Shown: piece by piece, positions 10,972 to 26,745 of the stretch
Layout: every line of letters begins with the position of its first letter
Position numbering within the stretch: the stretch's first letter is position 1
DNA from: a virus
Virus record (IMG/VR): IMGVR_UViG_3300045988_158900
Strand: one strand, 5' to 3'
Length of the DNA: 37,614 nt
Program-made: the position numbers and the translations under genes
The notes under the pieces: model-generated
What the model was told of the DNA's origin: nothing
Seen by the model: only the letters and a program-made list of their open reading frames with translations
The model's database searches: none

Positions 10972-11093
10972 GATTTACCTCCTTAATTCATTGACTCTTT
11001 ATTTTTTATGGTTTTTTCACTTTTCTAATCATCAGCCTTTTCAGGTCGCCCAGACTATTTTGTTTCAGTAGTCTGTTTTGTAGTAGTCTATTG

Positions 11094-12644
11094 ATTACTA
11101 CTTCCTGAATTATTTTGTGTTTTATTCTAATTGTTTGAACCTTTATTACCCAAAACATCTTGACTACTCATAGTAGAAGACATTAATGGTGGGATCATAA
11201 TTTCAGTTAATTTCAACACATCATTTTCAAATACCGCAGTATTTAAAATAAAACTCTAAGAGTGACCAAGAGCAATTTGAGGTAGCATCTTAGAATAACC
11301 AAGTTGCGTCTGTTCTTTATATAATTTTGACATTTCTTTATAATTATATTGTGTAGTTTCAAGCATATAAAATTTAAAACTATATTTCTTATTGTTCGCA
11401 ACTTTCATCTTTACTATTCTATCAAAAAAAATGTTAAATTGCAACAACAAGTTTCTAACAGTTGATTCATCATTAAGAATAGACTTCTCTAATGATAAAT
11501 TACCATCAGTATTAAATAGATTTTGAGAAATGCCTAAATTATTATAAACAGTACGTTCAACTTTTGCTAAATCATCTGTAGTAGTTGTAGTATTTTTATC
11601 TGATAAATCAATAGATTGAACATCAGTAAATGTTGTTAAAACATCAACACCAATAGCTCTTGATAACATAGCAACAGCATTATTATGTATGTCACGAGAT
11701 TCATCAATATCAAATATTAAATCGCCATTTTTATCCATCGGAAGTTTTTGAACAATAATTTTTAACAACTTCTACATTTGTTTTCTGCGGTCTAAATCTT
11801 GAGCAGCATCTAAATCCATAAGAGCAGGGATAGAATTAATAAATGGTGGGGCATCACTACCATTAAAATTAAATTTCACACTTAATTCTGGAGATAGTAA
11901 ATACCAACTTCCACTATAATCTCCCTTAATATCAGGAAGTAATTTTCCTTTCTTATATAAAATATATCCGCGCTAAAATTCTTCGGGGAATAATTTTAAT
12001 ACGCGCATACGATAATTAGGATCTGGAAACTAATCAAAAAACCGCATATCAAACTCAATTGCTGGCATACCAGCCACAAAGTATCTAGAACGGCAATAAC
12101 TAGCAGGTAATTCTTGTAACATTAAGCTATTTGCAGATTGTACTATATATCCATAATAACAACCATTTTTCATAATACTTTGAGCAATATCACCGCAGAT
12201 TTTTTTAATATAAGTATTATCTAAATAATTTAATAATTTTGAAAAATCTTTTAAAACTTTTTCATCTTTTACTGTATCGTCTAAAATCTCTGGAGCAACA
12301 TACCAATCATATCTATACAAATAAGCAAAATAATTACATACTCGCTCATAAATACCGCTAATATCATAAAATAAATTAGAAATTCTACGCATTTCAACAA
12401 TATCACGATTTATCATAGCTCGTAATACATCATTTTTAGTGACCATGCGACATGGTCCACGACGATTAGGATATAGCCGAGCAAATGACCCTAAATCTAA
12501 TACAGCATCATCTAATGTTTGAACCCCAACTTTTATTTTACGATATTCTGTTGGATCAGCAGTTCGATAATCACTTGTTCCATTGCTGATATTAAATCCT
12601 TTGGAGTGGATGATTTCCTAACGTGATAATTCTTTAGTATCCAA
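11094..12644 (-). CDS. Portal protein candidate, about 516 aa, with at least 3 in-frame TAG and a TTG start
   Basis: RBS AAGGAGGTGGAATT-TTG at 12644. Track ORFs 12030..12446 and 11256..11768 are in-frame fragments. The frame continues through TAG codons to TAA at 11094. Position between terminase and scaffold. Confidence 0.45.
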
Positions 12645-12656
12645 AATTCCACCTCC

Positions 12657-13013
12657 TTAATATCCAGCTAATTGCATTATATAATCATATGTAATAAGAT
12701 TTTCATCTGTATAAGGAATCTCTATTAATTTAAAATCGTGTAAAGCACAAAAACGTCGTTTTTGATTATCATTATATTGTTGTTGATATAAACCTTTTTT
12801 ACCACCAAATTTCGCGCTAGGCTCATAGTGCTATTTACCCTAATATTCAATAATAAAATCAATTCTACCATCATCATCAAAAACGACAAAATCGAAACGT
12901 AAGGGTCTGCCACTTGGTGCCTTCAAATCTGGGAAAATATACTCCATCTTAAACGGTAATTCAGCTTGTCGCAAAATCTCTTCAATTTTAATTTCGCCTC
13001 TAGACGCTCTCAT
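12657..13013 (-). CDS. Small PD-(D/E)xK endonuclease (DUF559/Vsr-like), 118 aa, with 2 in-frame TAG
   Basis: Translation MRASRGEIKIEEILRQAELPFKMEYIFPDLKAPSGRPLRFDFVVFDDDGRIDFIIEYQGKQHY... carries the RFDF..(8-10)..IEYxGxQHY signature of DUF559/Vsr-type endonucleases. It is inserted between terminase and portal like a free-standing homing-type nuclease. Confidence 0.5.
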
Positions 13014-13023
13014 AATTACCTCC

Positions 13024-14757
13024 TCAATTCAAGAAACACCAATCTTTAGCATTAAACTTTTTACGTTTCTTCTTTTTATCTTCTTCTAATTTTAAATAAT
13101 ATAGTCCATATTCAAAAGCAGAAAATTTATCTTTTCGGATACTTTTATTTGCTTGCTTCAGGATAATATTTACTCCTTCAGTTTCTTCACGCAAATTCAT
13201 CATTTCTTCTTTTAATATGGAAGTTAATGTAAATGGTTTTAATTCTTCTGCCCTCTATTCTGGAGTCATAGTTTGACCTTTCTTTTTAGCAAGAAGTTTA
13301 TTTTTTGCTACGCGTTCATCAATTAAAAATTTTACTTTTCCAGAAGCAAGTTGTGATTTAGCAATCGCATGGGCCTCTGTATTAAGCGGCGCATTAGCTT
13401 TTATAATATACATAGCATCTAATACTGTATTAGATGTTTTATATTTTTTATAAAATAAATCATCATCATTAACAACACCAAAATCAGGGAAAATTTCATT
13501 AGTTTCAGGATCAATCTATGTCTTAACCATATAATCAATTAAACCAATTCCCAAACCATTACCATCAATTACAATTCTATCAGCGTTATATTTATAATAT
13601 AATTTTTTTAATTTAATAGTTTGGTCTTCAAAGTGTTCATCAGATAATGTATATATATTCACTAGACTTTTAATCGAGCCACCTTGTGATTGTGGAGTTA
13701 CTTTAAATATACAAATAACTGAATCGCATCCTTTACGACCAACGTCGACAGCAAGTACATAAGATGCTAATTTTGAATTACGCCCAGACGCTTCATATTC
13801 AGGCTAATTTAATATTCTATTTCTGTCAAATATTTCAGCATTAAAAAATGCATCTTCTACAGTGCCAGACCATTTACTTTCATACTCTCGGTCAAATGAA
13901 CTTTCATTGAACGTTCCATCCATTTTTAAGTCTTTAATAAAATTCGCATCTAATAATTTCATTAAAACAGGAATACGATAAGTACCACCCATAATAATAG
14001 ATTGCTAAGGTTTAACAATCTCCCAAACTAATAATTGGATTAATTTATCATAGGGGAAAGTATTTTTATATCCAGCAGTAGTAATATAAATTTGAGATTT
14101 ATTAAGAGTTTCATCAGGTTGAGTAGTACCATCCATACACATACGAGAAATATTCATTGTAGGAATAATAACTTGTGATAAAATATCACCATCAACACCA
14201 ACGCACTCTTCAATTAAACCACCATGGCGACGTTTACCACGAGAAGACTCTCTTGCGGCAATATTATCAAAATATGAACCATTTTTAAATACATATTTAA
14301 CATAATCTTTGCCTTCAAGTGTCTAACCACGGTGCCAATCTATTTCTTTCTAAAATGCAGGAATAAGAGTACAAATTTCTTGAACTTTTTCTTTTACAAT
14401 TCCAGCCGCTTGCTCTTTACCACCAGAAGTAATAAATAATTTACATCTAGGATATAGAATCGCACGACACATTAAGACCATTATTGATAAAAAAGATTTT
14501 GAATAAGCACGAGGGAATACAGCATAAATATATTTATGACGCATCGCAGCGCGCAAAAAAATTCTCTAATAAAAATAGAGTTTAAAATGTTGAGGGCCAC
14601 CATCAGGTCCTGCCATAAAGTCGATAAACATATCTGGATATTCTCTCCAAAAGGCTATGTACTATCTTGCTTCTGGTATAATCGCACGAAGACGGTCCTC
14701 TGAAATTCCAATCTTTTTACGCTTCTAAGATAAATCAAGTAAATCCTATAAAGCCAT
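13024..14757 (-). CDS. terL: Terminase large subunit, about 577 aa, with about 10 in-frame TAG
   Basis: ATG at 14757 follows the upstream stop. Track fragments 14350..14556 and 13804..13992 are in the same frame. Hand translation shows a P-loop-like segment (YAVFPRAYSKSF) and RNaseH-like nuclease acidic segments (VLAVDVGRKGCD, IVIDGNGLGIG). The 3-prime end (TGA near 13024) is uncertain by a few nt. Confidence 0.75.
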
Positions 14758-14758
14758 A

Positions 14759-15955
14759 TTATCCTTCTAAATTCCTTAAAGTCTGAGCATCTATTTCAGA
14801 CTCTTCCTCAAGGAAATCATTATATTCAATTAAATCTTCATCTTTAAGATGATCGATTTCTTCCATCGTTAAATCTTCTTCAATATCTTGGTCTTCTTCT
14901 TTATTTTCTTCTTCTTGCATTTTCTTAATAGCCCCTTCAATGAGATTACCTAGATTCATCTCTTCGGTGACTAATGTATGTGTATAGTTCTTTAAATCTT
15001 GTAGAGTTTCGTCAACTTTATCTTTTGGACCTTCTGTATAATACCGAGGAATAAATCCTTCAGTCTCACACATGGCCACTAATTCTCCAATAGAATCAAA
15101 TGCTTCTCCTGTATCTGCTTTATTTTGAGCGGCGGTGAAATTACCTGATTTCATTAGACTATCATAAACCTTGCTCATCTTTTGGAAACCTTCGATATCA
15201 CCAATATCGATCAACTAGTTTGCTTTTAAGGATGTCTTACAAATTAATTTTAATGTATCAATATGACCAGCGCCGCGGATATCATAAGAACTCATCATTT
15301 CTTCATAGAGTTGCTCTAGTTTAACCCATTCTTCGGGTTTATATGCTTTACCCCACTTCATACGAAGATATAAAATATCTTCTTCTGTTAAATCGAGGCC
15401 ATCTGCTGGGTCATGCTCAATACCATTCTATTGATCAAAATAATCATCACCATCTCTAAAACGTTCAGGCAATTCAGGAGTATAAGGTTTTAATTCTTCT
15501 TCTGGAATAGCGACAGTAGATTTAGCAATAGCTGTTGCTATTTGCTAAGCATCATATCCTTGACGTTTCATAGTTTGCTCTAATTTATTATTAGCCACTT
15601 CCTATAAAAACTCAGAATCTTTCCATCGATAATCTTTATATTGTTTAAGTTTCATTTTGGACAAATATCTACCTAAAATACTCATACCAGTTAATTTAGA
15701 TTTATCTTGTCCATATTTTACCATTAATTTACTCCACTCATCTGGAACATAAGGTACATCAATTTCTTGTAGAATCCACATATAAGTTTCTGGATTCCAG
15801 TTATCTACAAGCATTGTAATACATTTTTTACATTGAGGGAGTTTTCCATCATTTGGATATTTTTCTAAGTTATTAGATGTATAAAACTGGTCAGCGCCCA
15901 TAGTTCTATTACATCGTTCACAATAATATACTTTTTTATCATTATCTACAGTCAT
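14759..15955 (-). CDS. Zinc-ribbon plus acidic C-terminal protein, 398 aa, with 4 in-frame TAG (terminase small subunit or DNA-packaging accessory candidate)
   Basis: Track ORFs 15602..15955 (CxxC...CxxC) and 14759..15214 (acidic) share a frame and are joined by a TAG-only stretch. RBS AGGAGGAAAATT-ATG. It lies immediately upstream of terL. Confidence 0.45.
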
Positions 15956-15997
15956 AATTTTCCTCCTTATATCTATCCAATAACAGGCATCTCAAAA

Positions 15998-17062
15998 TTA
16001 TAACTGTTTGCCCTTGTTTTTGGCATTGCGGCATTTTTTACAAATACTGTAATAACCATCTTTGCTGGTTTTATTTTTGCTAAAATATTTATTATGTGCT
16101 AATTTAATTTGCCCACAACGGCTACATTTTTTATATTTACCTTTTGCTTTATGTAAATAATAATCATATAGGTATTGGTCTTCAGCCGCAGAGGCGATTA
16201 GTTTTGGAATTTTATTACGCCATAAACTAGAAATATATTCTAAACTATGAGTAATATTAAATTCCTTTTGAATTTTCTTTTGAATGTCTATATTCTATAA
16301 TCCATCAATTTTATATTCAACTATTCTATCATATAAGGGATAATCTTTAAGAGCAATGGTACATAAATTATCGAAATCTTCCATAATATACCATAAATCT
16401 CTTTCAAAATCTCCCCAACTATCTTGCTTTAAACGAGAATAATTACATAAAATTGCAGAACATACTCTAGGGTCTAATAGTGAAACGCCATCCGGGATTG
16501 GATAACCATCATCATCAAAAATGCAAGTCGTGTCCTCTAATGGAATAAAATTTCTTGAACGAGTAATTTTAGTCATAACAATTGGACGACGAACTGCATT
16601 TTTAATAACATACTAATCTTTACGCATTTCAATAATAGCACGTTTAATTATAAATGCCTCGCGTCCTTCGCTAACTCGTAATTTGGCTTCCCAAGTAGTA
16701 ATGGCGTCTCTTAACTATTTTAAATGAGGTATTTCTTCTATATCTTTTTTAGTAATTGTAATTTTAGGCTAAAATATTGTATTTTTATTTTCAGTAATTA
16801 AATTATAAATTCCATCTTCGCCATTCTCAAATTGGGAAACAAGACCTTCAAAAGATGTTTCACGTTTATTAACTGTTGCCATACGATTATCAGTTAATAA
16901 TTTACGCTCCTTTTTCTCTTGTTTCTCCATACAAAGAATGATATAGTCCCCTAATATTTCTAAATATCGAGGAGAGGGGTCTGGGGTTTCCTCTAATATT
17001 TTCTTGACTAATTCATTTCTTTCTTCTGGAGTTTGTAAGGAATAGTCTAATTTTATCATCAT
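15998..17062 (-). CDS. First gene of the late operon, 354 aa with a C-terminal CxxC..CxxC zinc ribbon, about 4 in-frame TAG
   Basis: Track ORFs 16769..17062 and 16295..16576 share a frame. The TAG-only linker was translated by hand. Stop is TAA at 15998. Function unknown (regulator or packaging candidate). Confidence 0.45.
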
Positions 17063-17087
17063 TACCTCCAGATTTTTTTACGTCTTC

Positions 17088-17116
17088 ATTATACAAAAAA
17101 TTTTTCCAGGTGTCAA
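17088..17116 (-). promoter_or_regulatory. Late-operon promoter (sigma-70/sigma-A consensus with extended -10)
   Basis: Minus strand TTGACA(17111-17116)-N17-TGTATAAT(17088-17095), upstream of the first late gene. Confidence 0.55.
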
Positions 17117-17171
17117 ATTTTAATAAATGCATTTAAAAAATTTTTAGACAATACTATTAATTGGGAAAAAT

Positions 17172-17200
17172 TTGACAATAAAAAAAATTTTTTGTATTAT
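17172..17200 (+). promoter_or_regulatory. Divergent promoter for the plus-strand small-gene block
   Basis: TTGACA at 17172, an AT-rich 17-nt spacer, then TATTAT/TATAAT-like -10, followed by AAAAGGAG RBS and ATG at 17231. Confidence 0.45.
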
Positions 17201-17230
17201 TATTATAATAAAAAATAAAAGGAGAAGTTT

Positions 17231-17629
17231 ATGGTAATTGCTATTATTATATTAAGTATATTATTAATATTATCTATTATATATAATATATTATTTACAA
17301 AAGGAGTCGCTAAACTTCTTGATCCTGAAAACATTGAACAAAAATATAATTTAATAGCAGATTATTATGGAGATGCAAATAACATTGAAGAAAGTTTTCC
17401 TTGTTGTTTACTATTACATCTCCAATTTAATGCGAAGGAATCCACAAAAATCACAGACTTCTCTAATTATGAAAATTCTAATATAATCGCTTATTCAGTT
17501 TTGTCCAAGGGCCCACCACCACCTGGATACGCCAATCAATTAGAAGAAGACGGCTCTATAAGAATATTAGTCCGCAATGTTCGAGTAAATAAATATAAGG
17601 ATGGTGAATATTTTTGGGAGCCTATGTAA
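17231..17629 (+). CDS. Membrane-anchored protein, 132 aa (N-terminal TM helix)
   Basis: Complete track ORF with RBS AAAAGGAG and a hydrophobic N-terminus MVIAIIILSILLILSIIYNILF. Confidence 0.6.
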   Translation: MVIAIIILSILLILSIIYNILFTKGVAKLLDPENIEQKYNLIADYYGDANNIEESFPCCLLLHLQFNAKESTKITDFSNYENSNIIAYSVLSKGPPPPGYANQLEEDGSIRILVRNVRVNKYKDGEYFWEPM

Positions 17630-17820
17630 TTGTTATCTTTTGGATAATCATTTCAGCATTAGTAATGTTTGAATATATTGATGCAATTCAAAGCGCCGGT
17701 GAAAATAAATTAATTGTTTGTTTAATATTTTTTATTGGTGGCCCAATATTCGCTGCGAGTGATTTATTACAAAGAATTTTAGATATATTTTTACCAGAAG
17801 GGTGGAATGGTGATGACTGA
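17614..17820 (+). CDS. Small two-TM membrane protein, 68 aa (holin-like topology, TTG start)
   Basis: Track ORF with two hydrophobic segments and a charged C-terminus. Overlaps the upstream gene end. The function call rests on topology only. Confidence 0.4.
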   Translation: MGAYVIVIFWIIISALVMFEYIDAIQSAGENKLIVCLIFFIGGPIFAASDLLQRILDIFLPEGWNGDD

Positions 17821-17839
17821 AAAATAGATTAAATATATT

Positions 17840-18139
17840 TTGAAAAATTTTAAACGAGGCACTACTATTCTATTTATGGGTGTATCATTTAATCAATATA
17901 TTAATCTTGAACAATTAACTGAAGCAGGATATACTTGTATCCTATTAGGTGAAGGCCAAGATTATTGGCCATATATTCAAGATAATATGATTATTTATGT
18001 GGATAATATTGATATTAAAATTATGCGATTAAATTGTTATCCATTACATTGTCCAATTTTTGTATATGATAAAAATCGAGTAATGAATGCAGAAAATAGA
18101 GACGTGCGCGTTTGGGCAGAAGTGTTAAAAGAGGAGTAA
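17840..18139 (+). CDS. Hypothetical protein, 99 aa
   Basis: Complete track ORF in the standard code, with RBS AAACGAGG. Confidence 0.5.
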   Translation: MKNFKRGTTILFMGVSFNQYINLEQLTEAGYTCILLGEGQDYWPYIQDNMIIYVDNIDIKIMRLNCYPLHCPIFVYDKNRVMNAENRDVRVWAEVLKEE

Positions 18140-18140
18140 T

Positions 18141-18434
18141 ATGAAAATTTATAAATATTTAATTGAAACTCCAGGGTCAACTCATATTATGGACCATTTG
18201 ACTGATATTGTATCTACTGGATTAGACGTAAATAATAATCCATGTGTATGGGCAGTTTATGATGAAAAAGCACCCAAAAAATATTTTCAAATTAATGCTG
18301 TTGGTACAGGTTGGGAATTGGATAAATATGTAAATAATAATGACAAGTATTTAGGAGTTATTAATGATGGTGAGTATATTTGGCATATCATTAAATCCTC
18401 TGGAGAAAAATGTCATATAATGGAGGAGAAGTGA
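18141..18434 (+). CDS. Hypothetical protein, 97 aa
   Basis: Complete track ORF with RBS AAAGAGGAG and ATG overlapping the upstream TAA. Confidence 0.5.
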   Translation: MKIYKYLIETPGSTHIMDHLTDIVSTGLDVNNNPCVWAVYDEKAPKKYFQINAVGTGWELDKYVNNNDKYLGVINDGEYIWHIIKSSGEKCHIMEEK

Positions 18435-18438
18435 TTTT

Positions 18439-18756
18439 ATGGAAGATGGAAAAAATTATTTTGATATTGTAATGCGAGAAGGCCAAGCGATAGTTCATAA
18501 TGAGGGTTCTATTCATTAGGTTGATAGTTTAGGCCGCCTTGTTTTTCCTAAAAATTTAAGACAAAAATATGGTATTGCTCCTGGTGACCGCATGGAATTT
18601 TATACTATTGAATATAATGATGAAGTTTATGTTGGAGTGCGAGTGAGTAAACGATATGGTAGTAGAATAGAGTATTTACGCGCTAAAGAGGTATTAGATG
18701 ATTTAGGAATCGAAATTCCTCAAAAACTAACTGATGCTATTAATGGAGTAATGTAA
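18439..18756 (+). CDS. AbrB/MazE/SpoVT-family (swapped-hairpin) transcriptional regulator, 105 aa, with one in-frame TAG at 18517-18519
   Basis: After the TAG the frame reads VDSLGRLVFPKNLRQKYGIAPGDRMEFYTIEYNDE, which matches the AbrB N-domain core (VDELGRVVIPIELRRTLGI..D.LEIY). The TAG lies inside the domain N-terminus, 26 codons after the ATG. No alternative in-frame start exists downstream of it. Confidence 0.6.
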
Positions 18757-18757
18757 T

Positions 18758-18901
18758 ATGCCTAAGTATAAAAGTTTTGGAAATGCCCTCGCTGCTAAAA
18801 TGCAGAAAAAGGCTAATTATTATGCTACTAAAGCAGTTCATCAAATTGTATGGGGTGAAAACCCTAAACGTGGTCGCCCTAAAAAGGAGGATAAAAAATG
18901 A
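18758..18901 (+). CDS. Small basic protein, 47 aa
   Basis: ATG at 18758, 2 nt after the AbrB-like stop. K/R-rich C-terminus. Stop TGA overlaps the next ATG (ATGA). Confidence 0.4.
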   Translation: MPKYKSFGNALAAKMQKKANYYATKAVHQIVWGENPKRGRPKKEDKK

Positions 18902-18981
18902 TTCTTGAAGCATTAGCATTAATAGGATTAATTTTATTTTTTCCTATCTGGTTTTTTAGTAGAAATAAAATTAAAAAGTAA
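18898..18981 (+). CDS. 27-aa hydrophobic peptide
   Basis: RBS AAGGAGGATAAAAA-ATG. Sequence MILEALALIGLILFFPIWFFSRNKIKK. Confidence 0.35.
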   Translation: MILEALALIGLILFFPIWFFSRNKIKK

Positions 18982-18985
18982 TTCT

Positions 18986-19034
18986 TACCATTATCTGAAT
19001 TGAAAAATATTCTACCGTTATCTGAATTAAAAAA
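18986..19034. repeat. Two 22-bp direct repeats (TACCATTATCTGAATTGAAAAA / TACCGTTATCTGAATTAAAAAA) at the left edge of the GC-rich island
   Basis: Visible direct repeat spaced 27 bp apart. Confidence 0.6.
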
Positions 19035-19355
19035 AGTTTTGGTGAGAGTTTGTACCAGCCAAACAAAAAAATAAAAATCAAAAAAAATTTTTTCCCGAAA
19101 CCCACCCCCCCCGGTCGGTTTTTATCTGAGAAAAAATCTGAACACTATCGAGGCCTTCTTGGGCTTGGCGCACGCGGAAAGGCTAGACCATCCCCAATAC
19201 AGCCCCTCAACTCACAGGACCGCGAATGGCTGTCGCGGTCCTCATTCGCAATAAATACAAACTCCACAAAAAATCTCTCGCAAATTTGTGTATTCTACCA
19301 ATAGACACGCATCCTGAAACGTGGTATAATAGCATTATCAAAGGAGGAATAGTCT

Positions 19356-19451
19356 ATGTCTATCATCTACAAAATCGTGCGCTTCATCGTTGCGGTCGCC
19401 GCTGTCGCGGGCATTGGCATCTTGATGTGCCTCATCTGCCTCCCTCACTGA
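19356..19451 (+). CDS. 31-aa hydrophobic peptide (MSIIYKIVRFIVAVAAVAGIGILMCLICLPH)
   Basis: Promoter ATAGACA-N17-TGGTATAAT and RBS AAAGGAGGAAT lie upstream. Terminator follows immediately downstream. Confidence 0.5.
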   Translation: MSIIYKIVRFIVAVAAVAGIGILMCLICLPH

Positions 19452-19463
19452 GGGAGGTTTTTT
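19438..19463 (+). terminator. Intrinsic terminator
   Basis: Hairpin CCTCCCTCACTGAGGGAGG followed by TTTTTT. Confidence 0.7.
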
Positions 19464-19474
19464 GTTGCCCTAAG

Positions 19475-20266
19475 ATTGTTAAAAATTTAACGATGTAGCA
19501 AGATTGTTAAAAGATTAACAATGTAGCGAGATTGTTAAATTTTTAACAATCACTCAACCAAGAGAGGACAAGGACACACACGGCATAGTGGACAAGGAGA
19601 GCGAGCCAATGAGCGAGCGACCAACAGACAAAGAGAACAACACACAACACAACACAATGATAGATACATTGTTAATGTATTAACAATGTAGTATAGTAGT
19701 ATGGTATGGTAGTAGATGGGGCAGGGGTGGGCTATGGGTAGTGGGTAGGGAGAGAGAGTAGACCGACAATAAGAGATGCGGACGCGCTTCCCACCGGTCG
19801 GCTCACCGGGAACCGCGCACCACAAATCTAATGTAGGTATTCTATTTCTCTTTTGAGTTCATCATCGTTAACGGCCCTAATCGCCCAAGAATAAGCCCTC
19901 GCACAATTGCCAAACAATACAGCGGCGCAGGCGCTGAACAGCGCGCATCCCGCAACACACAGTCCTCACAGAGGGGCGAGCAAGATTGTTAAAAATTTAA
20001 CAATGTGAGAGCCAAGAGCAAGAGAGTAAGGAGTGCGCTTGCACAGGTAGCAAGGAGGACACGCACGGCACTGTTGATACATTCGCTGACCGAGCAAGAT
20101 TGTTAAAAAATTCACAATGTGTGGATGTAGTGAATGTGCTGTTTAATTGTTAAAAATTTCACATTCGCTGTTGGATGCCGAACACGGTCGCCGCGCTCCT
20201 AACTTCACCACGTTAAAGTGATAAAGAAAAAAAATCGCAAATCCGATTGTTAAAATAATCACAATC
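19475..20266. promoter_or_regulatory. Array of 8 palindromic operator-like sites, consensus ATTGTTAAA-N2-TTTAACAAT, with a ninth copy at 21108-21126
   Basis: Sites at 19475-19494, 19503-19522, 19530-19551 (perfect 10-bp arms), 19666-19689 (ACATTGTTAAT-GT-ATTAACAATGT), 19985-20004, 20099-20118, 20145-20165 and 20246-20266. Several are preceded by GAGCAAG. The whole 19453-20290 region is non-coding. Confidence 0.7.
19718..19750 (+). other. G-quadruplex-forming motif within a C-depleted G/T/A tract
   Basis: Six runs of G3-4 within 33 nt (ATGGGGCAGGGGTGGGCTATGGGTAGTGGGTAGGG). The flanking 19685-19761 stretch has only 2 C. The preceding 19555-19657 stretch has only about 4 T. Confidence 0.5.
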
Positions 20267-20306
20267 TCTGTCCCGAAAATAAATAGGTTATTTTTGAAAA
20301 AACCTC

Positions 20307-20335
20307 TTGACAAATTGCCCTATGTGTGCTACAAT
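20307..20335 (+). promoter_or_regulatory. Consensus promoter (TTGACA-N17-TGcTACAAT)
   Basis: Exact TTGACA at 20307, 17-nt spacer, extended -10. Confidence 0.6.
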
Positions 20336-20365
20336 GATTACAGTAAAACAAAGGAGGACGATACA

Positions 20366-20602
20366 ATGTCTAACATCTATGGAGTCTGCTACACCACGAA
20401 AGAGCCTGTTGTCTACAACAGAGGGACACAGTGGGAGAAAACCTGTTCCGACTTCCTGTTCGTTCAGGCAAACAAGGACAATGGCACAAAGCTGGTGGAT
20501 AAACTGAACGCTATGCTTGCCGAGGGTGTGGAAAAGTACGAACTGCTGGACATGACAAAGATTGACCATTTCTATCTTGACAAGTCCGAGGAAATGTATT
20601 AA
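20366..20602 (+). CDS. Hypothetical small protein, 78 aa
   Basis: RBS AAAGGAGG lies 7 nt before ATG at 20366. The track frame carries a 5-prime extension that lacks an RBS. Confidence 0.6.
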   Translation: MSNIYGVCYTTKEPVVYNRGTQWEKTCSDFLFVQANKDNGTKLVDKLNAMLAEGVEKYELLDMTKIDHFYLDKSEEMY

Positions 20603-20615
20603 GGAGGAAATGACT

Positions 20616-20804
20616 ATGACACGCACTATCGCTAATACCTACATCTGTATCAACGCCGAGGGGCAGACGCTCTCCATCATCGCCCGCACGGGCAACGAAG
20701 CCCACAACATCGCAATAGGGTTTTTGCGGAAAGCCAACATCGTGAGCGTTCGCCGTGTATTCAAGTCCGGCAAGCTGGGCAAGGAAATTCTGAAAATTAA
20801 ATAA
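20616..20804 (+). CDS. Hypothetical small protein, 62 aa
   Basis: RBS AAGGAGG lies 8 nt before ATG at 20616. Terminator follows. Confidence 0.55.
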   Translation: MTRTIANTYICINAEGQTLSIIARTGNEAHNIAIGFLRKANIVSVRRVFKSGKLGKEILKIK

Positions 20805-20808
20805 CATA

Positions 20809-20834
20809 AACAGGGCGCAAGCCCTGTTTATTTT
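20809..20834 (+). terminator. Intrinsic terminator
   Basis: Hairpin AACAGGGCGCAAGCCCTGTT followed by TTATTTT. Confidence 0.7.
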
Positions 20835-20843
20835 GAAAAAACT

Positions 20844-20872
20844 ATTGACAAACACAAATAAGCGTGTTATAA
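20844..20872 (+). promoter_or_regulatory. Consensus promoter (TTGACA-N17-TGtTATAAT)
   Basis: Exact -35 and -10 hexamers with extended -10. Confidence 0.6.
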
Positions 20873-20905
20873 TAAATACAGAAATTAAGAAATGAGGTAC
20901 GCAAA

Positions 20906-21094
20906 ATGAAGAACATCTATGAAATCGAGAACATCATCGACGAAATCCCCGCTGATGACTGGGCTGGCATTTGTAATCTGATGGACTACTACTATCAGTC
21001 GAATTTCTCCGCTGACGCTGAACAGAGACTGGCAAGGGCAATTGCTCCTTACGGCTTGACCGCAGAGGAAATCCTGGCCTGGGACGCTGAGTAA
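20906..21094 (+). CDS. Hypothetical small acidic protein, 62 aa
   Basis: Track ORF with RBS AAATGAGG upstream. Confidence 0.55.
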   Translation: MKNIYEIENIIDEIPADDWAGICNLMDYYYQSNFSADAEQRLARAIAPYGLTAEEILAWDAE

Positions 21095-21138
21095 GCGTCC
21101 TATTTTTTTGCGGTTGGATTGTTAAAACTTTAACGAGC

Positions 21139-21203
21139 ATCGTCGCGCTCATCAGGCACGTGGCGCCCCGAAATATTATACCACAACAGCCCACCAGTTG
21201 TCA
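21139..21203. repeat. Half copy (right arm plus hairpin) of the palindromic promoter element, carrying a leftward consensus promoter
   Basis: Minus strand reads CTTGACA-ACTGGTGGGCTGTTGTGG-TATAAT, facing a GC hairpin. Confidence 0.5.
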
Positions 21204-21324
21204 AGAGAAAAATGCGAAAATTTTGCACAAAATTTGCTATCCCGATTTGTGTAGTTTGCCAATAGACAAAATGAAATAAGCGTGTTATAATGAATACAAC
21301 AAAAACAACAAAGGAGATACACAC

Positions 21325-21633
21325 ATGATTAACATTCGTTCTATCCGCAAGCTGGGCAATAATGACGGGCTGACCCTCAAAATGGGCAAAAAGGTAAACT
21401 ATAAATCCGGCTGGCAGGTTGCCACAGAGGGCATCGAGTGTAAGACCGCACAAGAAGCCATTGACGCGGTGAGAGACTACGGCGGCAATTGTGGCGTGTG
21501 GTTCAGCGAGGGCATTTATTACATCGACAAAAGCAAGCGCGTGGCGACAAAGCGCGAGGCTATGGAAATCGGCAAAGCGTGCAATCAAATTTCCGTGCTG
21601 AAATGGGCGACTATGACGCTTGCCTACTGTTAA
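21325..21633 (+). CDS. Hypothetical protein, 102 aa
   Basis: Track ORF. Promoter ATAGACA-N17-TGTTATAAT and RBS AAAGGAGA upstream. Terminator follows at 21638-21670. Confidence 0.6.
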   Translation: MINIRSIRKLGNNDGLTLKMGKKVNYKSGWQVATEGIECKTAQEAIDAVRDYGGNCGVWFSEGIYYIDKSKRVATKREAMEIGKACNQISVLKWATMTLAYC

Positions 21634-21637
21634 AATA

Positions 21638-21670
21638 ATAGGGCGAAAGCCCTATTTTTTTTTTATTTTT
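21638..21670 (+). terminator. Intrinsic terminator
   Basis: Hairpin ATAGGGCGAAAGCCCTAT followed by a T-run. Confidence 0.7.
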
Positions 21671-21742
21671 TTTGAAAAAACTATTGACAAATCGCGTTTA
21701 ACCTGCTATAATTAAACCATCAAAAGAGAGGAGCTAAACGCT

Positions 21743-21934
21743 ATGACAAACTTTGAACAGTATCTCGAAAACCTGATGGGCATGAAGAAAGCGGAAATCA
21801 TCAACGAGGGCATCACCTGGGGCATCTGGGCGAACACCGAGGGCAACAAAGCCGAGTTGATGAAATGGAAAAAAGTTCTGCTGGCGCGTTCCCTCGCCGA
21901 CCGGCTGGAAAGACTGGAAAAGCGGGGCTACTAA
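21743..21934 (+). CDS. Hypothetical small protein, 63 aa
   Basis: Track ORF. Promoter TTGACA-N17-TGCTATAAT at 21685 and RBS AGAGAGGAG. Terminator at 21936-21962 (ACAAGGGCGAAAGCCCTTGT followed by T8). Confidence 0.6.
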   Translation: MTNFEQYLENLMGMKKAEIINEGITWGIWANTEGNKAELMKWKKVLLARSLADRLERLEKRGY

Positions 21935-22008
21935 GACAAGGGCGAAAGCCCTTGTTTTTTTTATATGGCATTATGCCCATAATTCGGTTGGAAATTTTGG
22001 TGATTTTG

Positions 22009-22112
22009 CCTATTGACATCCTGCCCCATTTATGTTATACTCGGTCGCGCGCCCACGGCCCTGGCGCGCGAAATTTACCATTATACCATGTCCCAGCAAT
22101 TTTGTCAATAGG
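22009..22112. repeat. Palindromic promoter element copy 1 (PE1): face-to-face consensus promoters flanking a GC hairpin
   Basis: CCTATTGACA...TGTTATACT on plus, a GC hairpin (GTCGCGCGCC cacggccct GGCGCGCGA), and the reverse complement of TTGACA-N17-TGGTATAAT on minus, ending ..TTGTCAATAGG. Confidence 0.65.
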
Positions 22113-22140
22113 CAAATCAAACAAAAATCATACATTCTGA

Positions 22141-22164
22141 ATCCCGAAATTTGTGCATTTTGAC
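22141..22164 (+). promoter_or_regulatory. Conserved upstream box ATCCCGAAATTTGTGCATTTTGAC preceding a class-2 promoter. Example of about 9 copies.
   Basis: Variants of the same motif recur 20-40 bp after each palindromic element, at about 21247, 23192, 24978, 26877, 29294, 30933, 32235, 33892 and 34989. Confidence 0.5.
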
Positions 22165-22224
22165 TATTGACATTCACGCGCCCCTGTGCTATACTGTATA
22201 CATAAAACAGAGGAAGTCATGAGT

Positions 22225-22497
22225 ATGACGCGTGAGTACAAGGTTCGGTTCATCGACAGCGAAGCCCAGCATAGCGAGACTGCCACTATCCAGTGGGATG
22301 TTGATACCAGCATCTGCGACCTTATCGAGGAACAGCTCTATATCCTGTGGGAGTTGCGCCCTTTGGAGCGTGAGTGGCGGAGACAGTTCTGTACCAATGG
22401 TTGGACGCGGTTTATATATGGCCTATATGAGCAGTTTTCTGTGTCCTATCCCTGGGATAATTCCAATATCATCACCGTTGAAAAAATCCAGGCTTGA
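22225..22497 (+). CDS. Hypothetical protein, 90 aa
   Basis: Promoter TTGACA-N17-TGCTATACT and RBS GAGGAAG lie 8 nt before ATG at 22225. Terminator CCAGGCTTGACCTGG followed by a T-run overlaps the stop. Confidence 0.55.
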   Translation: MTREYKVRFIDSEAQHSETATIQWDVDTSICDLIEEQLYILWELRPLEREWRRQFCTNGWTRFIYGLYEQFSVSYPWDNSNIITVEKIQA

Positions 22498-22577
22498 CCT
22501 GGATTTTTTTATTTTATGCTTGACAACAACCAATAGGTGTGCTATAATTGTATTATCAAATGAGGGAGGTATTCAAG

Positions 22578-22799
22578 ATGGAATACAGTGTGGTAGTCAA
22601 TAATGTTGAGGTCGTGCGCGTGAGCGGTGATGAAGCCGCGTGGAACAAGTTTGAAATGGCGTGTGAGTTGGTGCGGCTGATGCTGGCTGATGGTGGCTTT
22701 GGTGAAGCGTGGGCTGAACTCCGCGAGATGAACAGCGAACCTATCGCCCGCTTTGATGAAAAGGGTATGAGCGAGTGCGGCGCAGTCCGCGGAATGTGA
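22578..22799 (+). CDS. Hypothetical protein, 73 aa
   Basis: Promoter CTTGACA-N17-TGCTATAAT and RBS GAGGGAGG before ATG at 22578. Confidence 0.55.
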   Translation: MEYSVVVNNVEVVRVSGDEAAWNKFEMACELVRLMLADGGFGEAWAELREMNSEPIARFDEKGMSECGAVRGM

Positions 22800-22809
22800 G
22801 GTGCGACAA

Positions 22810-23007
22810 ATGAACGCTAAGGGATACACATTTTGCGGCGGAGCTGATGAACGGGATGTTCTCCGCTATGGCGAGTACCTGACCGATGAACAGTATACCA
22901 CATGGGACAAGCACTATTACCGCCTGCGCGCTATCCGCTACAACGGTAAACTGTACTGGCACAAGATGGTGGACGGCGAACTGGTTGAATTTAAGGTTTT
23001 GATTTAA
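22810..23007 (+). CDS. Hypothetical protein, 65 aa
   Basis: RBS GAGGTG lies 7 nt before ATG at 22810. Terminator GAGCCAAAATTTGGCTC followed by T7. Confidence 0.5.
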   Translation: MNAKGYTFCGGADERDVLRYGEYLTDEQYTTWDKHYYRLRAIRYNGKLYWHKMVDGELVEFKVLI

Positions 23008-23050
23008 TAATAAATGAGCCAAAATTTGGCTCATTTTTTTGTGCATTTTG

Positions 23051-23153
23051 CCTATTGACAAAATAGCATTTTTATGGTATAATTTTGGCCGCGCGTCTAC
23101 GACCCTGACGCGCGGAAATTCCATTATACCACAGCCCAGCCAATTTGTCAAGC
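23051..23153. repeat. Palindromic promoter element copy 2 (PE2)
   Basis: Same architecture: CCTATTGACA-N17-TGGTATAAT, hairpin GGCCGCGCG tctacgaccctga CGCGCGG, then reversed TATAAT/TTGACA. Confidence 0.65.
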
Positions 23154-23269
23154 ATTTTGTGTTCGGTATTTTCAACAATTTTTTATCCCGAAATTTGTGC
23201 AATTTGACGGTTGACAATGCTCAGTAGGTATGCTATACTTATACCATCAATTAAAGGAGGTCATTCACA

Positions 23270-23446
23270 ATGGCTACTATCGCAATCCTCGCAATCCTCG
23301 CCCTCGCTGGCTTTGCTGGCGTTCAGTGTGTCGGCGGGTATATGGTCTATCGTCAGACGCACGACTGGCACTTCCTCATTGGCTCTATCCTATATGGCGT
23401 TGCCTGTATCGGTCTGGTGCGCTTCGTGTTCAATATGGGGTGGTAA
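23270..23446 (+). CDS. 58-aa small membrane protein (MATIAILAILALAGFAGV...)
   Basis: Promoter GTTGACA-N17-TGCTATACT and RBS AAAGGAGG lie 8 nt before ATG. Two hydrophobic segments. Below the track length cutoff. Confidence 0.55.
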   Translation: MATIAILAILALAGFAGVQCVGGYMVYRQTHDWHFLIGSILYGVACIGLVRFVFNMGW

Positions 23447-23447
23447 T

Positions 23448-23771
23448 ATGGAAAACTACACTATGTCGAACCATCTGACAGAGGAGCGGGCTAACCGACT
23501 CGCCCTCTTACAGGAATACCTCGGATATTCCGACCGCGTGATGATTGAGGTCATTGACCAACGCCAAACCGCCCGTCTGCGTTTGCTCTCGACTGGCATC
23601 ATCTTGGTGCTGGACTTATATGAGAATTTCATCATCACCGCATACCCCGCAACTTTTGAACGGGCTGTCGCTATATACAAGAGTGCGGGCAAAAACCGTC
23701 TGCCCCAGCAGTTGGTCAAACGCATTCGCAAGAATGAGGAACGCCACCCTGAATTTTATGTGGTGAAGTAG
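23448..23771 (+). CDS. Hypothetical protein, 107 aa. The only island gene ending in TAG.
   Basis: ATG lies 1 nt after the upstream TAA. The 5-prime part of track ORF 23211..23771 overlaps the membrane peptide and lacks an RBS, so the start was moved to 23448. Confidence 0.5.
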   Translation: MENYTMSNHLTEERANRLALLQEYLGYSDRVMIEVIDQRQTARLRLLSTGIILVLDLYENFIITAYPATFERAVAIYKSAGKNRLPQQLVKRIRKNEERHPEFYVVK

Positions 23772-23842
23772 AAAATTGGGGCTTGACAAACAAGCCCCTA
23801 TCTGCTATAATAAATAATACCAAGAGAAAGGAGAATACCAAA

Positions 23843-24073
23843 ATGGAATTTATTGAACCCCCTATCTATGTCAAGTTGAGCGATGAAGAGCGCAATTCAC
23901 TCCATGAAGCCTATGTTATTCTAAATGACCTCGCGACTGCCGCCGAAGAAGATGACAGCGAATACATTGGCAACCCGCTAACTGGTGATGGCTATGGGCG
24001 GTTTGATGTGAGCCAAGCCGCTGAAATCTGCCGAGTGTTCGCGCCTGCTGAAAAACTGGAAATTAGTAATTGA
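23843..24073 (+). CDS. Small acidic protein family, copy 1 of 3 tandem paralogs (76 aa)
   Basis: RBS GAAAGGAGAAT. The segment EPPIYVKLSDEERNSLHEAYVILNDL aligns with copies 2 and 3. Confidence 0.6.
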   Translation: MEFIEPPIYVKLSDEERNSLHEAYVILNDLATAAEEDDSEYIGNPLTGDGYGRFDVSQAAEICRVFAPAEKLEISN

Positions 24074-24087
24074 GGGAGGAAAACAAA

Positions 24088-24315
24088 ATGGAAGTTATTA
24101 AACCCCCCATCTATGTCAAAATGACAGAGAAGGAGCGGAAAACCCTGCGCGATGCCTATGATATTCTGAATGAACTGTATGACGTCATCGCCGATAATGA
24201 CTGCGAGTATGTGAGCGATACTTGCGGGAATAACTATGACAGAGTGGACGTTGCGCTTACGGCTAATGTGCTTCAAATGCTTGCCCCCACTGAAAAAGTG
24301 GAAATCGGCAAATAA
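24088..24315 (+). CDS. Small acidic protein family, copy 2 of 3 (75 aa)
   Basis: RBS GAGGGAGG. The segment KPPIYVKMTEKERKTLRDAYDILNEL aligns with copy 1. Confidence 0.6.
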   Translation: MEVIKPPIYVKMTEKERKTLRDAYDILNELYDVIADNDCEYVSDTCGNNYDRVDVALTANVLQMLAPTEKVEIGK

Positions 24316-24330
24316 AAGGAGGTAAAACAA

Positions 24331-24561
24331 ATGAACATCATTACCTCAAACGTTCAGGTTCAACTCACCCAAGAGGAGAAGGACAAACTCCAAGACGCCC
24401 GCGAGGTTATTTCTCACCTGTTTGATTTGATGTATGACTACGAACAAGAATACGCTATTTCCAACATTGGCGAAAAGTATTCTATGGGCCAAGTCCGTGA
24501 TACCTCAAACCTGCTGGCCGCGCTTATCGGGTCTGATAAAATGCGGTTAGAAAATAAATAA
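24331..24561 (+). CDS. Small acidic protein family, copy 3 of 3 (76 aa)
   Basis: RBS AAAGGAGG. Same length and conserved ..LT.EE...L.DA..V...L..... pattern. Terminator at 24567-24591 is directly followed by the next -35 hexamer. Confidence 0.5.
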   Translation: MNIITSNVQVQLTQEEKDKLQDAREVISHLFDLMYDYEQEYAISNIGEKYSMGQVRDTSNLLAALIGSDKMRLENK

Positions 24562-24649
24562 AAAAAATGTGGGAGAAATCCCACATTTTTTATTGACAAC
24601 ACAACCAGTAGGTGTAGTATAATGTAGACAATGAAACAAGGAGGTAACA

Positions 24650-24856
24650 ATGACCACATTTCAAATTCGAGAGGAACTGGCGAACCGCTACAATTTAGAA
24701 ATCCGCAATGTCTGCTGTTATCACTGTGAATACTGGGGCTACAACCGCGGCAAGGTGCTGAATAGCGTGGGCGAGAGTAAATGTATGAAGCGCAAGAACG
24801 AGCGCACTTGGTGTCGTCAATTCTGCCGGGGTTTCGTTCCGAAATCAGGAAAATAA
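24650..24856 (+). CDS. Cys-rich zinc-binding small protein, 68 aa
   Basis: Track ORF with RBS AAGGAGG. Cysteine pattern CC-H-C ... C..C...C. Sequence MTTFQIREELANRYNLEIRNVCCYHCEYW... Confidence 0.55.
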   Translation: MTTFQIREELANRYNLEIRNVCCYHCEYWGYNRGKVLNSVGESKCMKRKNERTWCRQFCRGFVPKSGK

Positions 24857-24907
24857 ATCATTTGGGCTGGATAAACAAAAATCCAGCCCAATTTTTGTAT
24901 AATTTTC

Positions 24908-24966
24908 CACTTGACATTTTCGGCCGCGCGCTCACGAATGTGGCGCCCGGCATTTTTGTCAATAGG
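24908..24966. repeat. Palindromic promoter element copy 3 (truncated: arms plus hairpin, without -10 boxes)
   Basis: CCACTTGACA, hairpin, then ATTTTTGTCAATAGG. On plus the hairpin is followed by T5, so it is terminator-like. Confidence 0.5.
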
Positions 24967-25068
24967 TATACTTCACAAATTTTTCACCGCAATTTTGTGC
25001 ATTTTGACGATTGACTTCTATCCCGTAATACGGTATAATGGCTATACTGAAACAAGGAGGTAAGAACA

Positions 25069-25287
25069 ATGGAGTTGAAGAAAGCGTATCAGATGGTTTT
25101 CAGCGACCTGCATAATTGTCCTATGTTCCAAGGGCGGTATGACGCCATCAATGGCAATCCCTACTTTATGTTCGGCATTGAGACGGTTATGGAGGTAATC
25201 GCCAATCGCGCCTATGATGATGATTTTACCGAGAATTTCTCCAATGAATTTACTGACAATATGTTAAGGAGTAGAGAAAGTGTTTAA
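25069..25287 (+). CDS. Hypothetical protein, 72 aa
   Basis: Box plus promoter GATTGACT-N17-CGGTATAAT and RBS AAGGAGG. Track ORF. Confidence 0.55.
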   Translation: MELKKAYQMVFSDLHNCPMFQGRYDAINGNPYFMFGIETVMEVIANRAYDDDFTENFSNEFTDNMLRSRESV

Positions 25288-25465
25288 TATTGTATTGGCA
25301 CTAATCGTCGTAGGCGGGTGCGCGTGGGCGATTATCCACTTTATCCTCTGGCGAGACGAGAAATACTTATCCACCGAGGAGCAAATCCGCGAAATGATGG
25401 ACGAAACGTCCATTCCCACTGACACGCTGTGGAGTATGTATAACAAACTGACAGAGGGGCGTTAA
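25280..25465 (+). CDS. Small membrane protein, 61 aa (GTG start)
   Basis: RBS AGGAGTAGAGAAA-GTG. N-terminal TM helix MFNIVLALIVVGGCAWAIIHFILW. Confidence 0.45.
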   Translation: MFNIVLALIVVGGCAWAIIHFILWRDEKYLSTEEQIREMMDETSIPTDTLWSMYNKLTEGR

Positions 25466-25601
25466 TGCCCCTCTTGTTGGGTTTAGTCCTGGCTAACTAC
25501 ACGGAACAAAAAACTAATCCTGTGAGAATATAACTACAACAAAAATTTTTCTTGACATTTTCAAATAAATGTGGTAATATTATTATACTGAAAAAGGAGT
25601 G

Positions 25602-26078: not shown

Positions 26079-26144
26079 AATAGGGGTTGACAAATCAGCC
26101 CCTATGTGTTAGAATGGTATCATCAAATAAGGGAGGATAACAAA

Positions 26145-26294
26145 ATGGAAATGATTAAAGTTTTCAATGACCACACTGGCGAAATCCTTGAAAAGACGTT
26201 CGTAGACCCCGCGGACGCGGACGACTTCGAGTTCATTCTCGACTTCCTTGAAACGAGATACGAACGCTACCACAACGGCGAACAAATCTACTAA
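26145..26294 (+). CDS. Small acidic protein, 49 aa
   Basis: Hairpin-embedded promoter ATAGGGGTTGACAAATCAGCCCCTAT..TGTTAGAAT and RBS AAGGGAGG before ATG at 26145. Confidence 0.5.
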   Translation: MEMIKVFNDHTGEILEKTFVDPADADDFEFILDFLETRYERYHNGEQIY

Positions 26295-26307
26295 GGAGGG
26301 CGCGACA

Positions 26308-26505: not shown

Positions 26506-26507
26506 AA

Positions 26508-26705: not shown

Positions 26706-26745
26706 AAAATCTCCCAAATTTGGGAGATTTTTTTTGTTTATTTTG

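Follow-up and report, generated by a model that had tools for sequence, protein, structure and literature searches.

The stop codon TAG is read as glutamine (Gln) in gut phages with genetic code 15, and for recoded phages a model has already been published in which stop-codon recoding acts as a post-transcriptional timer (bioRxiv 10.1101/2021.08.26.457843; PMC10607447). The published emphasis in these phages lies on lysis, structural and integrase genes. Here we describe a gene for a predicted AbrB/SpoVT-fold protein of 105 amino acids (aa) with an in-frame TAG at codon 27 (TAG27). It is encoded on a viral DNA stretch of 37,614 nucleotides (nt) (IMG/VR record IMGVR_UViG_3300045988_158900), which is referred to as a whole as the window. 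A preliminary description of this DNA had proposed that the TAG gates synthesis of the regulator. Our analysis points, with a probability of roughly 0.7, to a phage AbrB/SpoVT-type regulator in which codon 27 is an ordinary amber Gln codon and in which any delay in synthesis is a by-product of the recoded compartment.

The predicted protein shares with the N-terminal domain of AbrB, Abh and SpoVT (PF04014, TIGR01439) the looped-hinge-helix/swapped-hairpin signature xRKxDxLGRxxIPKxxR, and with AbrB the small size (~86-105 aa in this family) and a short C-terminal module. It differs from AbrB, Abh and SpoVT by a 17-residue N-terminal extension and by a C-terminal half unlike solved structures. 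The R8-K9 dyad of AbrB is replaced by His-Gln with the Gln spelled TAG, and the gene is encoded by a virulent-looking phage and not by a bacterium. AbrB-fold type II antitoxins (MazE, PemI, VapB, PrlF; phrog_4681) fall under the same PF04014 superfamily hidden Markov model (HMM) and are of similar size, but the window locus is without a recognisable toxin, and orthologous loci do not share a conserved partner gene.

The window resembles the code-15 gut phages (Borges et al. model; Phass-1 group, 'Caudoviricetes code 15 clade') in the use of TAG for Gln, in low GC content, and in the combination of a standard-code early block with a TAG-rich late block. In the window, two putative transcription regulators with host-type promoters are among the genes that carry TAG, and the early block is set off by a 16-point jump in GC content. 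AbrB-family genes of human-gut Bacillota phages have been described before (Bernard et al. 2021; Schwartz et al. 2023). The reports on abrB in gut phages and Bacillus phages concern temperate phages or quorum-sensing-linked abrB, and a hijack of sporulation was proposed (10.1101/2021.07.15.452460; PMC10294663). In contrast, the window gene lies at a fixed place beside a sigma-like gene, with no quorum-sensing pair.

In the programme of phage SPO1, host sigma-A early promoters serve a host-takeover module, and phage sigma factors serve the later gene classes. The window is similar in having more than 20 near-consensus sigma-A promoters before small ORFan genes and a sigma-like gene heading the late genes. 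Unlike in SPO1 (gp28, gp33, gp34), the sigma-like annotation in the window is putative, and the SPO1 scheme is not known to include a partner of the AbrB type.

The AbrB-like gene and its amber codon

The AbrB-like gene reads from an ATG at 18439 to a TAA at 18754-18756 and contains four Gln codons, exactly one of which is an in-frame TAG. The same frame on the opposite strand is closed. The features of the gene are the following.

18439..18756, plus strand: predicted AbrB/SpoVT-fold regulator gene, 105 codons plus TAA, codon 27 being TAG read as Gln
18517..18519, plus strand: codon 27, the in-frame TAG, at the end of strand beta-1 and corresponding to AbrB K9 / SpoVT R9
18422..18428, plus strand: Shine-Dalgarno sequence GGAGGAG, 10 nt 5' of the ATG, read from the sequence
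18490..18648, plus strand: predicted swapped-hairpin (looped-hinge-helix) DNA-binding domain, residues 18-70, from alignments and an AlphaFold2 (AF2) model
18655..18741, plus strand: C-terminal two-helix region, residues 73-101, with conserved Y..A..VL.ELG.E.P..L, from the 36-member alignment and AF2

With TAG decoded as Gln the peptide across codon 27 is ...EGSIHQVDSLGR.... The preliminary description had placed the open reading frame (ORF; 18439-18756) and its TAG (18517-18519) exactly, and it was correct that a stop at TAG27 would leave a 26-aa peptide. The gene also lies where it had been put, between the late operon (1-17062, minus strand) and the standard-code early block (19.3-35.5 kb).

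Genetic code of the phage

Codon usage and ortholog comparison indicate that the phage reads TAG as Gln, i.e. uses genetic code 15. Coverage of 1-17000 by ORFs (stop-to-stop, at least 100 codons) rose from 53% under the standard code to 98% with TAG as a sense codon, while reading TGA as sense brought no gain in ORF coverage. The terminase, portal and structural proteins restored in this way matched PHROGs. A close relative (L009) has late proteins that share 95-99% identity with those of the window, yet at several sites one of the two has TAG and the other CAA/CAG. Across 31 related loci the window TAG sites were occupied by TAG 332 times, CAG 6 times, CAA twice and TAT once, and window CAA sites were TAG 32 times in relatives. 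The AbrB-like gene itself has CAA at codon 42 in the window and TAG in the L009-type alleles, and its alignment provides a clean internal proof of TAG as Gln in this phage. The 61 inferred genes end in 43 TAA, 18 TGA and no TAG, and in a standard-code relative (L035) TAG is the stop of 3 of 12 genes. Decoding as Lys, the family consensus at codon 27, was ruled out by the orthologs, in which TAG swaps with CAA/CAG and never with AAA/AAG.

Recoding is unevenly distributed over the window. The share of TAG among Gln codons is 67/209 (32%) in the late operon, where 13 of 17 genes carry TAG, compared with 2/17 in the operon of the AbrB-like gene and 0/95 in the early block. The large terminase is 44% identical to that of Phass-1, and by terminase Enterococcus phages H1 and VRE9 as well as Geobacillus virus E3 are also distant kin. 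Three tRNA-Sup-CTA genes of Gln identity have been published for Phass-1, a gut phage with code 15 (PMC10607447).

A predicted AbrB/SpoVT fold

Sequence profiles predict an AbrB/SpoVT-fold protein. The HMM search with PF04014 (MazE/SpoVT_AbrB), which had been suggested as a check of the AbrB-fold assignment, gave 25.8 bits for the product with Gln27 (E=1e-5, residues 26-58) and thus exceeded the gathering score of 24.7. Precomputed matches to PF04014 are also recorded for two relatives (P0001 and P0002), and phrog_4681 matched residues 21-59 with E=3.7e-10. An exhaustive profile search recovered 255 relatives at E <=0.001. Most of them are 80-90 aa long and align from residue 18-20 to about residue 101 of the window protein.

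In an alignment of 36 homologs D29, G32, R33, R41 and P94 were invariant, and P37, K38, L86 and L97 nearly so. The protein carries the signature D-x-x-G-R-[IV]-x-[IV]-P-K-x-x-R of the PF04014 DNA-binding loop, which could be aligned residue by residue to SpoVT 1-42. The profile of these 36 homologs matched structures of SpoVT (2w1t/2ro5, E ~4e-11), AbrB (1yfb/1z0r/2k1n, ~7e-10) and Abh (2fy9, 1.6e-8), and 35 of the 36 family members matched the AbrB-family domain TIGR01439 at E <=0.01 (best E 2.6e-12). The AbrB-fold identity claimed in the preliminary description is supported by these profile matches and the PF04014 score, and similarity to the AbrB family, the lack of which would have spoken against the claim, is strong. 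The structure matches are confined to the N-terminal DNA-binding domain; the C-terminal half is without a match to solved structures.

The AF2 model from the 36-sequence alignment reached a predicted local distance difference test score (pLDDT) of 80.8 and consists of a strand (18-27), a loop, a helix (38-44), two strands (51-59 and 62-70) and two helices (73-89 and 95-101). The order strand-loop-helix-strand-strand in this monomer is that expected for the AbrB fold. An earlier model from a 4-sequence alignment had a pLDDT of 50.8, and its fold search was meaningless. Residues 1-17 form a short N-terminal extension specific to the clade. The C-terminal helices (pLDDT 95-97) make up a family-specific two-helix module, which is probably an oligomerisation module.

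The 90%-identity cluster of the AbrB-like protein comprises hundreds of metagenomic contigs of up to ~200 kb, some of which are labelled human gut. No match was obtained by tblastn of the protein against 50,697 phage records, and no close homolog was found among 185,579 bacterial and archaeal reference genomes. Megablast of 12000-19500 returned only ~70%-identical terminase fragments of Enterococcus phages.

Full-length protein and decoding of TAG27

Codon 27 aligns with the second residue of the motif R-K-[ILV]-D-x-x-G-R (AbrB K9 / SpoVT R9). The AF2 strand 18-27 and the alignment to AbrB/SpoVT both place the TAG within the N-terminal strand of the DNA-binding domain, as the preliminary description had proposed. 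It had also raised the question whether non-recoded homologs carry Gln at this position; the equivalent residue was mostly Lys or Arg (124/176 motif-bearing sequences; K 91, R 33, Q 24). Among the 24 Gln cases 19 belong to the clade of this phage and about five lie outside. Three of the latter five were examined (P0080, P0088, P0142); their genes follow the standard code and spell this Gln CAA/CAG, the short genes among them having TAA as stop. The preceding residue is Arg in 126/176 sequences and His in this clade.

A translation start downstream of the TAG was ruled out. The next in-frame start is Met52 inside the domain, with no ATG, GTG or TTG before it, and typical homologs of 86-87 aa begin 8-10 residues upstream of the TAG-equivalent position. 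The homolog alignment therefore speaks against a functional protein that begins after the TAG, an outcome that would have undermined the gating proposal. The codons before the TAG are moreover under selection. Residues 5-9, 11-12, 14, 21-23 and 25-26 are invariant over alleles that are 57-96% identical, and codons 1-26 show a ratio of nonsynonymous to synonymous divergence (pN/pS) of 0.23-0.42 at nearly saturated pS (~0.55-0.6), which is in-frame purifying selection. Purifying selection was found on both sides of TAG27. Homolog starts and selection on codons 1-26 thus agree with the earlier statement that the full-length protein requires decoding of the TAG, and the full-length AbrB-like protein needs amber suppression. 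For annotation this means that standard-code gene callers split or lose this AbrB-family regulator, which is syntenic in a widespread ~200-kb gut phage.

The AbrB operon and the divergent sigma-like gene

The AbrB-like gene is the fifth of seven tightly packed genes that were delimited from frames and stops and have a GC content of 0.28-0.37, like the recoded compartment. A sigma-factor-like gene is transcribed in the opposite direction from the same intergenic region.

17231..18981, plus strand: seven-gene AbrB operon, gaps or overlaps of at most 16 nt
17231-17629, 17614-17820, 17807-18139, 18141-18434 (DUF7352), 18439-18756 (AbrB-like), 18758-18901 and 18898-18981, plus strand: genes of the AbrB operon
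17825..17827, plus strand: second sense TAG of the AbrB operon, codon 7 of gene 17807-18139, upstream MTEK conserved
17172..17200, plus strand: putative sigma-A/sigma-70-type promoter TTGACA-17-TATTAT (11/12) of the AbrB operon
17088..17116, minus strand: divergent sigma-A-type promoter TTGACA-17-TATAAT (12/12) of the sigma-like gene
15998..17062, minus strand: gene heading the late operon, sigma-factor-like (phrog_5767, E=2e-53), with 4 sense TAGs

Both promoters lie in the intergenic region 17063-17230 and are conserved in four lineages, including L009, a recoded distant relative (L032) and the standard-code L035. The sigma-like gene is 40% identical to Enterococcus phage genes (VRE9) that carry a sigma-factor annotation, and in all related phages it forms a divergent pair with the AbrB operon. 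Distant orthologs of the AbrB-like protein (P0012 and P0011, of loci L032/L035) are 32-35% identical and occupy the same genomic place. At these loci the AbrB-like gene is divergent from a sigma-like gene of 346-351 aa, which precedes a YonG_N-domain gene of the late operon, and the AbrB-like gene is followed by a ~1.3-kb non-coding gap and then an array of small plus-strand genes. The AbrB-like gene is thus a conserved syntenic component of large Bacillota-type siphophages of the human gut.

The neighbouring gene 18141-18434 matched DUF7352 (E=3e-10). A DUF7352 gene adjoins the AbrB-like gene in two distant lineages in reversed order, upstream in the window and downstream in L032, where it (8261-8521) overlaps the AbrB-like gene by 4 nt and carries one TAG. 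The DUF7352 protein may be a functional partner of the AbrB-like protein.

Between strains the AbrB operon is 58-80% identical, compared with 95-99% for the late genes. Many independent metagenome contigs (L019-L023, L027, L030, L031) end ~1.15 kb upstream or ~290 nt downstream of the AbrB gene, at the GC junction; these ends correspond to ~17290 and ~19040 of the window. They hint that the genome physically ends here or that the site is a hotspot of recombination or variability.

Candidate operators

Palindromic repeats were found downstream of the operon, in a gap that is mostly non-coding.

19475..21137, no strand: array of nine 20-bp palindromes ATTGTTAAA-NN-TTTAACAAT

There are 10 matches if a 3-mismatch copy at 17160-17179 is included, against 0.17 expected. 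This copy overlaps the -35 box of the promoter that serves the AbrB operon. The palindrome recurs without mismatch at the corresponding place in 28 related loci, including the L009 type, whose AbrB allele has nearly the same DNA-binding loop as the window protein. At that place another palindrome, AGAACAtttGTTCT, is found in L032, and direct repeats in L035. The array could serve as a set of operators, as an origin or in partition. As a candidate operator array its tie to the AbrB-like protein is speculative. The DNA targets of the protein might be the phage's own divergent and early promoters or the AbrB/SpoVT regulon of the host. The fixed place beside the divergent promoters favours control of the phage's own programme.

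Probably an ordinary amber codon in a recoded compartment

These observations are best accounted for if the gene encodes a phage regulator that would act like an AbrB-type transition-state regulator, with DNA binding predicted from its N-terminal domain. Host RNA polymerase would transcribe the AbrB operon and the sigma-like gene early, from their host-type promoters. Host release factor 1 (RF1) would release the 26-aa peptide at codon 27 until amber suppression becomes available, and the full-length dimeric regulator would appear only afterwards. The same delay would apply to the sigma-like gene with its 4 TAGs, to 17807-18139 and to 13/17 late genes. Dependence on suppression is in this sense real, but generic to all TAG-bearing genes, and a delay generic to these genes would be a by-product of the recoded compartment and not a dedicated gate.

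Codon usage agrees with an ordinary Gln codon. With 32% of Gln codons spelled TAG, as in the late operon, a gene with four Gln codons would carry one or more TAGs with a probability of 0.79. The recoded L032 is a TAG-recoded phage, yet its ortholog P0012 is without TAG and has Lys at the site, and the ortholog of the standard-code L035 likewise has Lys and no TAG. TAG27 is therefore not a conserved design feature of the family; it is a clade-specific Lys-to-Gln change that is spelled amber.

Several observations weigh against parts of this reading. The clade has H-Q in place of the near-universal R-K dyad, and its mode of DNA binding may differ from that of AbrB. P0001, the closest relative scanned (96% identical), scored 25.9 with TIGR01439, under the curated cut-off of 28.3. 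Foldseek of the AF2 monomer against the PDB gave no significant match, none having E <0.25; the best relevant match was AbrB-like C68 (3o27) with a probability of 0.84. Such a weak result is unsurprising because the fold exists only as an interdigitated dimer and the query was a monomer. The predicted swapped-hairpin dimer is nevertheless backed by sequence profiles and not by structure comparison. ARAGORN found no tRNA, suppressor tRNA included, in the window, in ~10 kb past its right end or in 11 related loci, and an Rfam scan of the window found no family. The suppressor tRNA presumably lies elsewhere in the ~200-kb genome. For Phass-1, the annotated features of the first 50 kb include no tRNA. 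Finally, TAG27 is invariant in three deep allele lineages at pS ~0.6, which represent too few independent events for a test and may leave room for weak selection on TAG27 itself.

A possible dedicated recoding gate

In one alternative the TAGs of the AbrB-like gene (1) and the sigma-like gene (4) would be selected for timing the early-to-late switch: host RNA polymerase would make both mRNAs at once, and the proteins would follow only after suppressor tRNA has accumulated. Both genes indeed carry TAGs, both have consensus promoters of the host type whose conservation extends over four lineages, the early block is free of TAG in 0/95 Gln codons and 0/37 stops, and the general model is published (10.1101/2021.08.26.457843). 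TAG27 was kept in 32/32 orthologous sequences, drawn from IMG/VR, ENA and Logan assemblies with two search patterns, one of which required CAA/CAG at codon 27. These represent 20 distinct DNA alleles, so that the TAG is fixed in 20/20 alleles including lineages at pS ~0.6, and one subclade has gained a further TAG at codon 42.

This retention is no better than that of other TAG codons, with 31/31 at codon 27 in the related loci compared with 332/341 (97%) over all TAG sites. TAG density (1/4 in the gene, 2/17 in the operon) does not exceed the 32% mean of the compartment. The preliminary description had held the AbrB-like gene to be the only gene outside the late operon and the right flank with an in-frame TAG. 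This was wrong, as 17807-18139, two genes upstream in the same operon, also has one. At codon 7 of that small gene the upstream MTEK is kept in 29 relatives, and strains are polymorphic (TAG, CAA/CAG, CCN): TAG is freely swapped for Gln codons (CAA/CAG, in L031) or Pro codons (in L007 and L028), and the L009-type alleles have a second TAG. The recoded L032 has no TAG in its AbrB ortholog and one in the sigma-like gene. A suppressor tRNA must also itself be expressed early, so the delay may be short. Usage, retention, the TAG of the neighbouring gene and the L032 and L035 orthologs do not support the dedicated switch that had been suggested, and we consider it unlikely.

The sigma-like gene with its 4 TAGs is a stronger candidate for code-dependent control than the AbrB-like gene. 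Together with the AbrB-like regulator (1-2 TAGs) it could form a translational checkpoint at which the code change licenses the early-to-late switch, the GC-rich TAG-free early island being the part readable before the switch; this too seems doubtful. If a gate did exist, the code change would act on regulators of the temporal programme and not only on lysis and structural genes, and the recoding-as-timer model would be directly testable by one codon swap. It would be a special case of an already published hypothesis. What is new here is one more member of the AbrB family and of the code-15 phages.

A possible host-directed mimic

The protein might alternatively imitate AbrB/SpoVT of a Bacillota host and, instead of acting on phage promoters, redirect the host's regulon for the transition state or sporulation. 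Its N-terminal domain is closest to SpoVT, AbrB and Abh, and AbrB/SpoVT homologs are reported to be prevalent in human-gut phages, for which a hijack of sporulation was proposed (10.1101/2021.07.15.452460; PMC10294663). Relatives of the phage infect Bacillota, and Phass-1 is predicted on Clostridia (PMC10607447). Against a mimic stand the C-terminal half without detectable similarity to SpoVT/AbrB, the R-K dyad changed to H-Q, and the lack of a close homolog in the 185,579 reference genomes. The strictly conserved place at the divergent regulatory region of the phage suggests a phage-internal role, and there is only a small chance that the host regulon is the target.

Antitoxin and pseudogene as improbable readings

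A type II antitoxin, for example with the adjacent DUF7352 protein as toxin, is suggested by names, since PF04014 is called MazE_antitoxin and phrog_4681 is annotated as antitoxin, and by the DUF7352 gene adjacent in the window (upstream) and in L032 (downstream, 4-nt overlap). No neighbour matched a Pfam toxin family, however, and a PADLOC scan of the operon proteins gave no match. The L035 ortholog stands alone without a partner, L009-type loci are without a DUF7352 call beside the AbrB-like gene, and the best profile matches are transition-state regulators and not MazE, PemI or VapB. Because no toxin partner is conserved, this role is very unlikely. A nonsense mutation in a decaying gene, or a sequencing error, might be read from the interrupted standard-code ORF, but it is effectively refuted by the same TAG in 32 independent sequences from many samples, by purifying selection on both sides of it and by the genome-wide evidence for TAG as a sense codon, and its probability is negligible.

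Other features of the window

The minus-strand head and packaging operon (1-17062, GC ~30%) encodes the large terminase (13024-14757), the portal (10983-12644) and structural proteins, with the start of the tape-measure gene at the left edge of the window. Four late genes on the minus strand (2119-3195, 6628-7215, 7304-8410, 8428-9363) are free of TAG, have a raised GC content of 0.37-0.41 and spell Gln mainly as CAG; adjacent genes contain up to 10 TAGs. Among the four are a virion structural protein (phrog_2729) and probably the major capsid protein, a pattern that suggests avoidance of amber codons in the late genes with the highest expression.

The early block (19.3-35.5 kb, 16 kb, ~46% GC) consists of ~37 small plus-strand genes with 24 TAA and 13 TGA stops. 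The few products that could be annotated are a 5'-nucleotidase and a protein with an HD domain. Between 20289 and 34873 small ORFan genes are preceded by more than 20 promoters of the extended -10 type close to consensus (TTGACA-N17-TGnTATAAT), many of them with an A-tract upstream, and the block looks like a SPO1-like early or host-takeover block for host RNA polymerase. The split in GC content matches codon usage: 1-19000 has ~30% GC with TAG for 32% of Gln, and 19300-35500 has ~46% GC with TAG neither as sense nor as stop codon. The GC jump is conserved in close relatives (L002-L010), weak in the recoded L032 and absent in the standard-code L035. The early genes may be tuned to the translation apparatus of the host.

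At the GC junction lies a mini-unit (19302-19458, plus strand) with a promoter (TAGACA-17-TATAAT with TG), a Shine-Dalgarno sequence and a 31-codon hydrophobic ORF (19356-19451), closed by a strong intrinsic terminator (19438-19458). A repeat of ~137 nt occurs in six copies within 21991-33913 (e.g. 26728-26864) and combines a consensus promoter with a GC-rich hairpin, flanked by a long inverted repeat into which the -35 box falls. The folding energy of the element is -37.6 kcal/mol (z = -4.95), and it has no Rfam match. These repeats may constitute a family of attenuators or of small transcripts with structure. A perfect 19-bp tandem repeat ACTCCCATCATTTTCTTTC in 6.1 copies (35678-35792) marks the point where the GC-rich island ends on the right. 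Further to the right, a TAG-bearing gene contains a 90-bp duplication (36449-36632), and short tandem repeats occur in the non-coding right end (37332-37593).

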